Shown: one piece after another, positions 18,023-22,704 of the stretch
How the letters are laid out: every line of letters starts with the position of its first letter
How positions within the stretch are numbered: the first letter of the stretch is position 1
Sequence record: DQ121662.1
DNA from: Escherichia phage Jk06
Strand: one strand, 5' to 3'
Length of the DNA stretch: 46,072 nt
Made by a program: the position numbers and the translations under genes
The notes under the pieces: model-generated
Databases searched by the model: none
Seen by the model: the letters and a program-made list of their open reading frames with translations, nothing else
What the model was told of the DNA's origin: nothing

Positions 18023-19255
18023 TAATTACAACCTCCGTTTGAATTGAGCCTTCACCAATCTTAACCTCAGTTGAAATTGCGCGCAACGTATCTCTTGCTT
18101 CGTCTGCGTCAATGATTCCAGCTGCAATCAATGCAGCAACTGAGTTAACATTCTTCTCAAGAATCTCAGATTTATCCTTGTCACTAACCTGCGATAGAGG
18201 GTTAAATTCTACTGACCACTCTTGCTCGGTTACGATGAACGGCAGCAGGAACTCAAGCAGAGGCAATAATTCAGCCTTTCGCTTACGGTCAACATAACCG
18301 TAGAAAGTCTCTAGAGCAGTGTTCTGGCTTGCTGACACACCACCAACATTCTTACCCTTAAGGATAATCTCATGAATACCGCTCAGAGCAACGATTCGAT
18401 CGAACTTCTGACTCAGAAATGTATCAATACCGCCAATATCTGAGTTGAGAACGTTGTACTCTTCACTATCCGCGTCAATCCCGATAGCCTGACCAACGCC
18501 ACTGTTATTATCCACTTGAGCCAGACGTAAACGAGCTGCTCCATCTGAATCATCACATAAGTCAGCAAGGCCTTTTGCTTTCCACACTCGCCTGCTGTTT
18601 ACGACGAAGTAACTGAGTAGCTCAGTCGCTCACAGTTCTGATAGTCGTCAATCGCGTCAATTAAGTCACTCAGTTATTACTGCTTGCGCTCCCAGCCATC
18701 GTTATTACGACGTAGGTTGTTAGGTACTCGCTCGCCATCAATGATGTGACAGCGTGTATAGTGCACATCGTAGAACGTTGCCGACCCGTTTGGCGTGATG
18801 CGGTAAGTTAATGGCTTACCAAAACGCGCGTTACGTGGATTCTCCTCGCGAGTCTGGACCTTAATTTGCTGCCGGTCGTATACACGAACCGTTTCAAGCT
18901 CCGCACCTTCACGAACCGGGCTGGTTAGCGCCCTTCCATCCTTCACAATTGCCACTACAGCAGCGCCACCGTATAGTCTCGCCCAGGCTAGTGCGTCGAT
19001 TACGTTATCTGAAAGGCCTAAATCATCCCATCGCGACCAGAATGCACCCTCATCATCAATGCCTTCAATGTTAAAGCCTGCGCCAAGCGCGACCTCTGGC
19101 ACGATATCAATAATTCGACGAACCAACGCACTACTGACGTAAAGCTGCTCAAGCTGTGCTGGAGCTGTCAGGCCAAGGCCGCCAAACTTTCCGTAAATCT
19201 CGCTACCATCAATCCCGTTAAGAAAGATGTTTGCGTAGCTATCTGCTTTTACCAT
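17982..19255 (-). CDS. portal protein, frame interrupted near 18590-18680
   Basis: Track ORFs 18677-19282 and 17982-18587 are contiguous; likely start MVKADSY at 19255 with RBS GGAG. Confidence 0.75.
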
Positions 19256-19270
19256 GTAATTTCTCCAATA

Positions 19271-19297
19271 AAAAAGCCCCATGTAGGGGCTAGTTTA
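19271..19297 (-). terminator. intrinsic terminator after moron gene, overlapping portal RBS
   Basis: AGCCCCTACATGGGGCT hairpin followed by TTTTTT on the minus strand. Confidence 0.55.
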
Positions 19298-19312
19298 TCA
19301 TAGCTTTTGTGA

Positions 19313-19687
19313 TTACTGGAATTTTACTTCGAACTTGATTGTGTCGCATTTTACGCCATCCTCATCAAGTTGATCTACAGTATAGCGCACATTCCCGAAC
19401 TCAATCATGTCAACCTCATGCTCGTTTATGTAATATCTAAGCCTTGGCTTTTTATCACCATAAGAAGCTGCACCAGCGCAGTCAGTCTCAGTCTCGAAAC
19501 TCTGATCGCCATCAAGGAGTTCGAACTTGTAGAATGCTCCGTTTTCTACAGCTCGATAGCAACCATCGTCGTCGTAAGTTGAGATGTAGCCATCTCCATG
19601 ATCTTCAATGTCATATTGCTTTCCAACAGTGAAGCCAGGATGCTTTTCATCAGCGCATCCGGTAAACGTAGCTTTTAAAGTTTTCAT
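19313..19687 (-). CDS. hypothetical acidic Cys-containing protein (moron between terminase and portal)
   Basis: 124 aa ORF with its own promoter module (19717-19760) and terminator (19271-19297). Confidence 0.5.
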   Translation of the reverse strand: MKTLKATFTGCADEKHPGFTVGKQYDIEDHGDGYISTYDDDGCYRAVENGAFYKFELLDGDQSFETETDCAGAASYGDKKPRLRYYINEHEVDMIEFGNVRYTVDQLDEDGVKCDTIKFEVKFQ

Positions 19688-19716
19688 TCTATTAACCTTC
19701 TCGTTTGTGTGAGGTG

Positions 19717-19760
19717 ATTATAAGCCATCCATGGCGATTATCTTTACCAATTCGTGCTAT
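19717..19760 (-). promoter_or_regulatory. promoter module variant (IR-like ATAGCACGAATTGGTAA, 22 nt, TATAAT)
   Basis: Reverse complement of 19744-19760 matches the repeated IR motif with one change; perfect TATAAT at 19717-19722 on the minus strand. Confidence 0.5.
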
Positions 19761-21323
19761 CTAACGCCAGCTAGCCTCATTAAGCGGGCTCTCGGATCGT
19801 CACTCAAGTTCAATTCACAGTTGATGGCCATTGTTGTCGTATCCACAATGTCATCATGGGGATGAGAATCGTCAGCAGTGAACGCCGAGAACTCGGTTAA
19901 TAGCGAGGTAAGCCATGGCGCAGAGTCAGGCAGAACTACGTTACCAGCTTTAATCTGTGGCAGTGCGCTCATCACCCTGGTTAACTTATCTGTATCTGGA
20001 ACGAAAGGCTCGATAGGAGTTCGCATTACCCGACCCGCCGACTGGATAAGTCCTATTCCAGACGCTTTCTTCTCGATAATAACCTTGCGCAATATACCAT
20101 CTGTCTTACTAGCTGCTCTATGCTTACTCTCAAAGTCCAGAAGAGTTTGCTCAAGTTCAGGTGCTTCCCATTTACCCCTTACCATATCGAGAAGATAAAG
20201 CCTGTTATCTTTGCGCCCCCATAGCTGGAATACTGAGTAGTCGCTATAACTCTTAGTAGTCATGGCAGTATCAGCCGTAATGAATCGGTAGTCATACTTG
20301 GCTGGAGGTCTGTTATTCTCATCGAGGCGAACAACCAATCTACGTTGATCAGGTTTCCACCCAGAGCTACTGGAGATTGTTGGTACTGGCTAAGGAATGT
20401 GTACGGATCTGAGTCCCACATTGCCATCAAGTCATGCACAGATTCCTTCTGCGGGAAGTAGCTGTAATACTTAACACCATCTCGCTCGACGTACTCGGAT
20501 GAAAGCACGTCCTTCTCGAACTGCTCACGAATCCAGTCAGGGAGTTCATTCACATATTCTTCAGTGACCAGCGCCGGTATCTTCACTACATCAAAGTCGA
20601 TACCCATACCACCAGAAGTCATGAACCACGTTGAATCCTGAGTATGAAGCCTTTGCTGAATTGACAGAATTGGCGTAGCTTTACCTTTAACGCTACTCGC
20701 CCTACGTGAGCGAATGGTATTTTTAAGTAAAACGTGGACAGCTTCTCGCCTTACCTTGCTGAGCATATCGTCTGGCTTGTCTGGGTCATCAAGCATCAAG
20801 CAACCGCTATAGGTTTCAGTAATATAACCGCCACGAGCGCCGGTAATCTGACCGCCAATTGCCTTAGATATCGCTTCGAACCTAACCTTTCCACTCTCGT
20901 CAAGAACCTGAATCTCGTCATCCTTGCACGTGCCGAACTTACAGGGCCATAGTTCCTGAAACTCACTGACTTTATAAGGTCGCGAACACGCTTAGAGTTG
21001 CGCTTCACCAGACTGTCAGAGAATGAGAGGCTCAGATTTCGCACCTTCTTTAGCTTAAGCATTGAATATACAGGGAAGTGTATTGAAGTAATCTCGGTCT
21101 TCCCGGCCCCAGGAGCCACGTTAATGATGGTATCCCTACGCTCGCCACTAATAACCTCGTCAATTATTCGGCAAAGGTACTTGTGATGCCAGTTAGGGAT
21201 GTATCGCTCTCCCTGGCTTAGCTGAAACCACACGCGAAGGAATGCCTCGAAGCTGTGAGTGGACAGCGCTTTAACTGCCAGCTTTTCGGCTGGCGTCATT
21301 TCTTCCCAAACTAATGTCTTCAT
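19757..21323 (-). CDS. terminase large subunit, frame interrupted twice (about 20260-20340 and 20796)
   Basis: N-terminal fragment has Walker A VAPGAGKTE; C-terminal fragment has a nuclease-type acidic motif; three overlapping track ORFs 20796-21323, 20260-20799, 19757-20338. Confidence 0.85.
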
Positions 21324-21883: not shown

Positions 21884-21907
21884 AAAAAAAGCCCTCACAA
21901 GGAGGGC
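21884..21907 (-). terminator. intrinsic terminator
   Basis: GCCCTCCTTGTGAGGGC hairpin followed by TTTTTTT on the minus strand. Confidence 0.5.
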
Positions 21908-22137: not shown

Positions 22138-22213
22138 TGGTGTTCCGCACTGGACTCGAACCAGTAACTGAGACTTAGGAGGTCTCTGCGTTATCCTGTT
22201 ACGCCAGCAGAAC
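22138..22213 (-). tRNA. tRNA-Arg (anticodon CCT), 76 nt with encoded CCA
   Basis: Hand-folded cloverleaf: 7 bp acceptor stem with one G-U pair, D-arm GCGT/ACGC, anticodon stem GAGAC/GTCTC with loop CTCCTAA, T-arm ACTGG/CCAGT with loop TTCGAGT, discriminator A, CCA. Confidence 0.75.
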
Positions 22214-22488: not shown

Positions 22489-22704
22489 TCAGTCATAAAA
22501 TACCTCAAAGTAACCAAACTCAATGTCATTGCCATCTTTAACCATCTCTATACACCCATCTTCTGACTCACATTTAACCCAACCATATGCGGGTGATGAC
22601 AAAATGCTGTAAGATTTACCAGTTTTGAACTTCTTATCATTGTAAGACCCAATACATCTGACTTTCCCTAGTGATTTAGTCATAAATCTGCTCCCCATCT
22701 TCAC
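22489..22704 (-). CDS. hypothetical protein
   Basis: 71 aa ORF in a co-oriented cluster of small early genes. Confidence 0.4.
   Translation of the reverse strand: MKMGSRFMTKSLGKVRCIGSYNDKKFKTGKSYSILSSPAYGWVKCESEDGCIEMVKDGNDIEFGYFEVFYD

Follow-up and report, generated by a model that had tools for sequence, protein, structure and literature searches.

A small gene between the large terminase (TerL) and portal genes of Escherichia phage Jk06 is, as comparison of this junction across phages indicates, dispensable accessory cargo at a TerL-portal slot of the Rogunavirinae and Braunvirinae. We analyzed the sequence record of this phage (DQ121662.1; 46,072 nt, the whole of which we call the window), a virulent T1-like siphovirus of the Drexlerviridae (JK06), and concentrated on the gene for the 124-residue protein JK_35P. 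We hold the description of the locus, that is, an accessory gene in a slot with family-wide border signals, alternating there with HNH endonucleases and exchanged between phages, with high confidence. Our preferred explanation of the whole, in which this dispensable cargo encodes an intracellular host or defense factor, is one toward which we lean slightly, and the functional class taken by itself is put forward tentatively. In our view, JK_35P is probably not a component of the packaging machinery or of the capsid.

The earlier note on this DNA had placed an acidic, cysteine-containing protein of 124 residues at 19313–19687, and the gene is found there (isoelectric point 4.46, 27 acidic residues, four cysteines). 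Its product has the same sequence as JK_35P of Escherichia phage Jk06 (100% identity), and the PHROG 14592 profile matches it at full length (E = 2.2e-46, 158 bits, residues 3–124 on profile positions 1–116 of 116). The gene lies between the TerL stop codon (TAG, 19759–19757) and the portal ATG (19255), in the same orientation as both:

19313–19687, minus strand: JK_35P coding sequence, 124 residues plus stop; ATG at 19687, stop at 19315–19313
19514–19687, minus strand: JK_35P N-domain, codons 1–58
19451–19513, minus strand: JK_35P acidic linker, codons 59–79
19316–19450, minus strand: JK_35P C-domain, codons 80–124
19757–20338, minus strand: 3' part of the TerL gene (PHROG 38 and 5573), left border of the slot
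19253–19255, minus strand: start codon of the portal gene (protein MVKADSYANIF...; PHROG 146), right border of the slot

Rogue1, phiJLA23, C119, phiKP26 and the AHP/AHS phages (Rogunavirus, Drexlerviridae) have the most similar records in the phage collection. JK_35P is absent from all of these, their flanking sequences are 86–97% identical (86% nucleotide identity between JK06 and Rogue1 over the last 600 nt of TerL), and the TerL-portal gap is 49–53 nt in Rogue1, AHP24, C119 and others. Among 54 Drexlerviridae TerL-portal junctions sampled from IMG/VR, 46 contain no cargo; the gap is 52–100 nt in 42 of them and in the remaining four seems longer only from a divergent portal N-terminus. Cargo occupies the other eight junctions, four of which hold a member of the JK_35P family (Sd1, IME253, Rtp and phiEB49) and four an HNH endonuclease. 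By tblastn, a JK_35P homologue occurs in 26 phage-collection records, compared with 909 that have a related TerL (about 120 of the latter at 60% identity or more), and among 5.8 billion proteins the family forms 73 clusters at 90% identity, with roughly 30 representatives at 50%. The earlier note took the gene for a moron, proposed comparing this junction between related phages, and named conservation of the gene at this position in all of them as the result that would count against the idea. The comparison clearly finds no such conservation, and the two genes that JK_35P separates are neighbors in its closest relatives. A secondary deletion in the Rogue1 lineage is tentatively favored over a gain in the JK06 lineage, because the gene-less junctions of this clade lack a repeat, described below, that the outgroup keeps.

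Two atypical arrangements were seen at the slot. The phiEB49 copy, gp57 (L016/L068, between gp58 and gp56), is 68 residues long and comprises the N-domain only, with a remnant ...SSIKFEVKFE still downstream; by its sequence it is a frameshifted or decaying copy. In a 43-kb IMG/VR contig (L061:2483-2860), small early-type open reading frames (ORFs) and not TerL precede the gene, and the portal gene after it seems frameshifted, which points to a rearranged phage or else to an artefact of assembly.

The HNH endonucleases found in the same slot are those of e4/1c, L015, L032 and L056. The HNH gene of e4/1c and L015 has a repeat, inverted repeat and -10 box on its left and a -10-like box and terminator on its right, whereas in two T1-like phages it precedes the repeat, so that there are two insertion points, after and before the repeat, among L010, L015, L032, L056 and L071. 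Both kinds of cargo occur together in Bas01, in the order TerL, HNH, JK_35P homologue, portal, and HNH genes also adjoin terminase genes in Rtp, AHP24 and L073. JK_35P could on this evidence be a selfish or neutral passenger of homing endonucleases, spread by co-conversion when a nearby HNH enzyme cuts the TerL-portal junction and of little benefit to the phage, and its patchy, mosaic distribution would agree with that. We regard this as very improbable, since both domains are under purifying selection, with invariant residues across three phage families, and the slot of JK06 and of most carriers contains no HNH gene. Moreover, co-conversion accounts for how the gene moves and not for why it is retained, and it is compatible with our preferred explanation as a mechanism of spread.

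Border signals of the slot

The left border of the slot contains a promoter-like module, all of it on the minus strand:

19743–19760, minus strand: intergenic direct repeat of the Drexlerviridae type, ATAGCACGAATTGGTAAA, which matches the 18-nt core ATAGCACnnnTTGnTAAA without a mismatch
19724–19735, minus strand: small inverted repeat, GCCATGGATGGC, with 4-bp arms and a 4-nt loop, situated 3' of the direct repeat and 5' of the -10 box
19717–19722, minus strand: -10-like box, TATAAT
19688–19716, minus strand: conserved leader, CACCTCACACAAACGAGAAGG..., with a Shine-Dalgarno-like GAAGG at 19696–19700

The TAG inside the repeat copy, at 19759–19757, is the TerL stop codon. The 18 nt counted from this codon, TAGCACGAATTGGTAAAG, have seven matches in the window at up to three mismatches (0.05 expected), and the looser pattern ATAGCACnnnTTGnTAAA has 15 (0.68 expected). 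We accepted 14 of these 15 as real and dropped the last, which overlaps a start codon and carries two mismatches:

Plus strand, copies of ATAGCACnnnTTGnTAAA: 14-31, 26415-32, 27092-109, 27722-39, 27920-37
Minus strand, copies of ATAGCACnnnTTGnTAAA: 19743-19760, 23533-50, 24674-91, 31981-98, 34278-95, 34965-82, 35844-61, 38238-55, 43714-31

The 14 copies sort into GAA, AAA and TTT subgroups and have a common layout, consisting of the repeat, a spacer of about 20 nt that often holds a small or terminator-like hairpin, TATAnT, a leader containing CATCGAAACGA, a ribosome-binding site and an ATG located 55–65 nt past the repeat end. Hairpins analogous to the inverted repeat occupy its position in the other modules, and in several of them the hairpin between repeat and -10 box is terminator-like. 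The JK_35P ATG lies 55 nt past the repeat end and about 75 nt from the repeat start, in agreement with the definition of the TLS-type direct repeat (PMC11447400). The minus-strand late block (approximately 1.3–21.8 kb) contains no copy other than that before JK_35P; the other modules precede Erf, a helicase, and small ORFs of the early and middle regions.

The components of the module are also retained between phages. The inverted repeat is kept as GCCAYGGATGGC in Rtp, JulesPiccard, IME253, CEB_EC3a, Sd1 and L064; relatives have TATATT, TATAGT or TATACT in place of the -10 box, and the other 13 JK06 modules have TATAnT; and the leader is kept as ACACAAACGAGAGGAG in gene-bearing relatives and resembles the CATCGAAACGA leader of the other JK06 modules. 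A canonical sigma-70 promoter was considered and rejected. The sigma-70 scan did not call the TATAAT at 19722–19717, which has no acceptable -35 box; TTGGTA (the repeat's TTGnTA) lies 22 nt upstream of the -10 box, a non-canonical spacing for sigma-70; the lone nearby call, at 19713–19686, overlaps the ribosome-binding site and start codon; and promoter-like matches in the region occur at chance level (17 found, 16.8 expected). An Rfam scan of 19150–19850 returned one meaningless match to a long noncoding RNA (E = 0.32). We found no transcript-start map of Drexlerviridae in the literature.

The right border consists of two abutting signals:

19265–19291, minus strand: intrinsic terminator, hairpin AGCCCCTACATGGGGCT (19291–19275) plus T-run
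19292–19300, minus strand: extended -10-like box, TGATAAACT, directly 5' of the terminator hairpin

The hairpin has a 6-bp stem, with five GC pairs, followed by TTTTTATT, and its fold (-17.5 kcal/mol, z = -2.7) is better than that of 199 of 200 shuffled sequences. It does not depend on the gene. In Rogue1, the order is TerL stop, TCATGATAAACT, hairpin, TTTTTTATTGGAGAAATTAC and portal ATG, with no gene between; in AHP24, which likewise lacks the gene, the hairpin is annotated as a rho-independent terminator between TerL and portal; and a hairpin with a T-run stands just before the portal start in every no-cargo junction read out (40 or more). The gene-less junctions of T1 type retain the repeat as well, in the order TAGCACGAATTGCTAAAC, GCATG, TATAAT, hairpin. 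Because the same hairpin precedes portal in relatives without the gene, we assign the terminator, on this comparison, to the TerL-portal junction as a constant element and not to JK_35P. The -10-like box is equally persistent: TGATAAACT is kept in Rogue1, L014, Rtp, JulesPiccard and IME253, TATAAT, TAAAAT or TACAAT stands there in other subfamilies, and one of these forms abuts the 5' arm of the hairpin in all Drexlerviridae junction types examined (including L001, L014 and L019–L060). This arrangement suggests overlapping terminate-and-restart signals ahead of the portal gene. The portal start is only about 20 nt beyond the terminator, and since the portal and head genes lie downstream of it, the terminator would have to be leaky or bypassed; re-initiation at the abutting box (19292–19300) is one way in which portal could be transcribed. 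The late block as a whole (1314–21907, minus strand) has at least nine intrinsic-terminator-like hairpins on its coding strand, at 21907, 19291, 15663, 13691, 11086, 10388, 6909, 4798 and 1331.

The earlier note had attributed to the gene a promoter and a terminator of its own. All of its signals, the TATAAT at 19717–19722, the motif resembling an inverted repeat and the terminator hairpin, are present where it put them; what changes is their ownership. The terminator is a real hairpin, but one that belongs to the junction. The promoter claim survives to the extent that the repeat module, which the note did not describe, occurs far more often than chance predicts, but the module has no -35 box, is a genome-wide element, and stands at gene-less T1-like junctions too. 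We conclude from these comparisons that the repeat module is a family-standard regulatory element and not a signal brought by JK_35P. JK_35P is most likely transcribed from it.

These observations bear directly on the view that JK_35P is a classical self-contained moron, a promoter-gene-terminator block inserted into the late operon with its own signals. Its location between genes that adjoin in relatives, the promoter-like element upstream and the terminator downstream, a GC content of 42.7%, somewhat below the 47.6% of the flanks, and the evidence of horizontal transfer presented below all agree with such an origin. However, the signals are found at junctions that have no gene (repeat, TATAAT and terminator in T1-like phages; terminator in Rogue1, AHP24 and L014), the module that forms the left signal has 14 copies across the phage genome, identity to the homologous contig L070 is only about 70% in the leader, which places the exchange in the coding region and outside the promoter, and a virulent phage offers no prophage stage for the expression of a moron. 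We therefore consider the strict form of this view quite improbable. The general idea holds for dispensable, horizontally exchanged cargo between otherwise adjacent genes, and fails for the signals, which belong to the junction or the phage family.

Exchange, selection and predicted structure of JK_35P

The closest homologue of JK_35P (78% amino acid identity) is encoded by two metagenomic contigs, L069 and L070, in the same TerL-gene-portal arrangement. Nucleotide identity between JK06 and these contigs changes abruptly along the region:

TerL, last 600 nt: 70%
Leader: 71%
Gene, codons 1–58: 91%
Linker: 66%
Gene, codons 80–124: 94%
Portal, first 560 nt: 69%

Between JK06 and JulesPiccard, the C-domain has a synonymous divergence (dS) of 0.15, compared with 1.07 for the N-domain. 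The segment identities and this dS contrast show that the coding cassette, or parts of it, passes between lineages by recombination. The break points fall within the gene and also at its conserved 3' end and the terminator; this 3' region is more than 90% identical even in phages whose gene has no more than 30% identity. Sd1 and L064 retain the C-terminal strand (VKFEIKFE, IKLEVRFE) through synonymous and conservative changes.

The ratio of nonsynonymous to synonymous divergence (dN/dS) is 0.17–0.53, which shows that JK_35P is a real, translated gene under selection. The alternative of a chance or decaying ORF without a protein product could appeal to the frameshifts in neighboring genes of the deposited JK06 sequence and to the 68-residue phiEB49 copy. 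It is effectively refuted by full-length homologues in 73 protein clusters, by dN/dS values below 0.55, by a confident fold prediction and by the conserved ribosome-binding site and leader.

An AlphaFold model of JK_35P built from 67 sequences (mean predicted local distance difference test score, pLDDT, of 77) predicts a five-stranded barrel at residues 3–57, a disordered acidic linker at 61–78 and a beta-beta-alpha-beta domain at 83–123; modeled alone, the C-domain reaches a pLDDT of 96. The predicted N-domain is a five-stranded small barrel that superposes on SH3 domains and can thus be described as an SH3-like beta-barrel, and the conserved 45-residue C-domain ends in IKFEVKFE. Mean pairwise identity across the family is 43% in the N-domain, 31% in the linker and 57% in the C-domain. 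The earlier note had suggested remote homology searches and structure prediction, which yielded this two-domain model with its SH3-like N-domain but no match to JK_35P in PADLOC, NCBIfam or PDB sequences. A Foldseek search of viral models matched small DUF7244 phage proteins, and the Pfam DUF7244 model (SH3 clan) scored 16.7 bits with the whole protein and 18.1 bits with the N-domain alone, below its 27-bit gathering threshold. The structure search with the C-domain gave no informative neighbor.

Several candidate relationships were rejected. An HNH or beta-beta-alpha-Me nuclease reading of the C-domain is not consistent with its variable putative catalytic histidine and lack of conserved metal ligands. 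Neither the protein nor the family profile retrieved anything useful from PDB sequences: matches to designed 'Cake' propellers were spurious (repeated sub-threshold stretches), as was a match to an intein with E of about 1. Long multi-domain Fn3/galectin repeat proteins from an exhaustive profile search are unrelated by Pfam. Elsewhere in the window, a 71-residue ORF (22489–22704, minus strand), with KFKTGKSYSI...SEDGCIEMVKDG in its middle, has a weak match to the JK_35P N-domain (hhalign E = 0.0018, probability 15%) and may be a standalone small barrel protein.

Possible role and relation to known systems

Homologues also occur outside the Drexlerviridae. A 140-kb contig related to the myoviruses FFH2, FV3 and WalterGehring (Vequintavirinae) encodes a full-length homologue (L067:2465-2875; PHROG 14592, E = 3e-28) just downstream of its DNA polymerase gene, among small ORFs with no assigned function. 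A 41.7-kb contig related to vB_EcoP-type podoviruses encodes another (P0071, L072:5001-5426) in an early array of small ORFs between lysozyme/tail-spike genes and the primase-helicase gene, upstream of the latter. Both keep the invariant residues of both domains, so that the JK_35P family, by sequence, spans three coliphage groups. These early and replication contexts count against a Drexlerviridae portal or capsid partner, because a protein with such a partner would not be expected there, whereas a protein acting on something common to E. coli cells would be expected in myovirus and podovirus contexts.

We prefer an explanation in which JK_35P would act within the infected cell on a host or defense component, with the variable, fast-evolving SH3-like N-domain giving specificity and the constant C-domain giving self-association or binding of a common partner. 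In this explanation, the left border of the slot would be formed by ATAGCACnnnTTGnTAAA, the small hairpin, the -10 box and the leader, a module that most likely drives transcription of the gene, and the right border by the -10-like box and intrinsic terminator, which would stand ahead of portal with or without cargo. The slot would be filled by the JK_35P family or by an HNH homing endonuclease, and cargo would be gained, lost and swapped between phages through recombination in the conserved borders; co-conversion beside homing endonucleases may add to its spread.

Several points weigh against this explanation. The myovirus and podovirus contexts come from one metagenomic contig each; PADLOC, NCBIfam and PDB sequences offered no match; the functional assignment draws on sequence and a predicted model; and transcription from the repeat module is deduced for an element that has no canonical -35 box. 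JK_35P also lies in the head and packaging block in late-gene orientation, and the family is named 'virion structural protein' in PHROG and RefSeq ('minor outer capsid protein' in one record), a label for which we found no basis and which we could not disprove. Finally, the pairing of a constant with a variable domain is also what an anchor-and-display virion protein could have.

The last points lead to the alternative that JK_35P is a virion-associated accessory protein (minor head, portal-proximal or decoration-like), with the C-domain anchored to capsid or portal and the SH3-like domain displayed, as in the Hoc/Dec type. PHROG places family 14592 in 'head and packaging / virion structural protein', and RefSeq gives the same name to the proteins of Rtp, IME253, CEB_EC3a and Sd1; the position between TerL and portal and the greater conservation of the C-domain than of the N-domain point in the same direction. 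We nonetheless judge it unlikely, if a serious contender. We found no experiment behind the label in the literature on phiEB49, ACG-M12, Sd1, MSK and Drexlerviridae proteomics, and no proteomic or structural basis for it. Near-identical phages and about 97% of the records that have a related TerL lack the gene, both domains are kept in replication and early-gene neighborhoods of a myovirus and a podovirus, and the module ahead of JK_35P otherwise precedes non-structural genes. TLS-type phages, moreover, have a separate decoration protein beside the capsid gene (PMC11447400), and Phage_cement genes were seen here.

A bolder version of the intracellular role would make PHROG 14592 a host-directed counter-defense or decoy protein, with an SH3-like domain that diversifies and is traded between siphovirus, myovirus and podovirus, the TerL-portal junction a dedicated cargo slot, and the ATAGCAC...TAAA modules doubling as recombination sites, like the promoter-early stem-loop (PeSL) cassettes of T4. 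We consider this speculative and distinctly unlikely; if true, the locus would be a concrete handle on the unexplained repeat of the T1 family. As it stands, JK_35P is an ordinary accessory gene in a long-known phage. If our preferred explanation is right, the locus would offer a natural test bed for the T1-like intergenic repeats, one copy of which would drive a single dispensable gene in the late block, and would illustrate a hot spot shared in turn by accessory genes and homing endonucleases; the small two-domain family, found across three coliphage groups, would be a candidate host- or defense-interaction factor. For annotation, the 'virion structural protein' label of this family in RefSeq and PHROGs should be treated as unverified.

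Other features of the window were noted in passing. Single-base indels relative to Rogue1, at 18540–18690, 20333, 20966 and 21594, break TerS, TerL (into three ORFs) and portal (into two ORFs). In five cases a T is inserted (C-C to CTC); these five lie beside a 6-nt deletion and within about 100 nt of the portal gene. Because JK06 is a viable phage, these indels look like errors in the deposited sequence and not like pseudogenes. A tRNA-Arg gene with anticodon CCT (22138–22213, minus strand) agrees with the single arginyl-tRNA reported for this phage group.

The left border of the slot corresponds to an element already described. A re-annotation of phage TLS defined a 21-nt direct repeat, aaATAGCACnnnTTGnTAAAA, that occurs 18 times between genes, about 76 nt ahead of start codons, recorded it also in T1, Rtp and Rogue1, and listed its function as an open question (PMC11447400). 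The JK06 element at 19743–19760 fits the aaATAGCACnnnTTGnTAAAA consensus, and its copies fall into the same three subgroups; that paper does not link the repeat to a TerL-portal cargo slot, nor does it describe the fixed downstream -10 box and leader seen here in every JK06 copy. It also recalls the T1 late region as a string of 'transcriptons' bounded by terminators (PMC11447400), and the JK06 late-block terminators fit this layout.

JK_35P has no significant sequence similarity to Gp54 of Bas11 (PDB 9axb; PMC11578894) or to the standalone SH3/DUF7244 proteins of Drexlerviridae (PMC13164509). Unlike them, it has an additional linker and a conserved C-domain and occupies another genomic position, and nothing connects it to CapRel or lysis. 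The HNH homing endonucleases of T1-like phages (e4/1c, AKS96, L015, Bas01) share its slot, borders and pattern of presence and absence, but they are unrelated proteins: the beta-beta-alpha element of the JK_35P C-domain has neither the conserved catalytic histidine nor the metal ligands.

PeSL cassettes are a basis of modular shuffling in T4-type phages. As in JK06, repeated modules of promoter and hairpin flank small accessory ORFs and offer homology for the gain, loss and exchange of cassettes; the sequence, the phage family and the order of the elements differ, and for JK06 recombination is deduced from mosaic boundaries only. Morons in the sense of Juhala and Hendrix are those of lambdoid phages such as HK97 and HK022. 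With these, JK_35P shares an extra gene between adjacent genes, a promoter-like element upstream and a terminator downstream, and a patchy, transferred and dispensable character. It differs in that its signals are those of the junction and of a repeat family spread over the genome, its upstream element is non-canonical for sigma-70, and its phage is virulent, which makes the rationale of prophage expression inapplicable. Because the terminator is not its own and prophage expression does not apply, JK_35P is a moron in the loose sense only, as extra DNA between otherwise adjacent late genes, and not in the strict sense.

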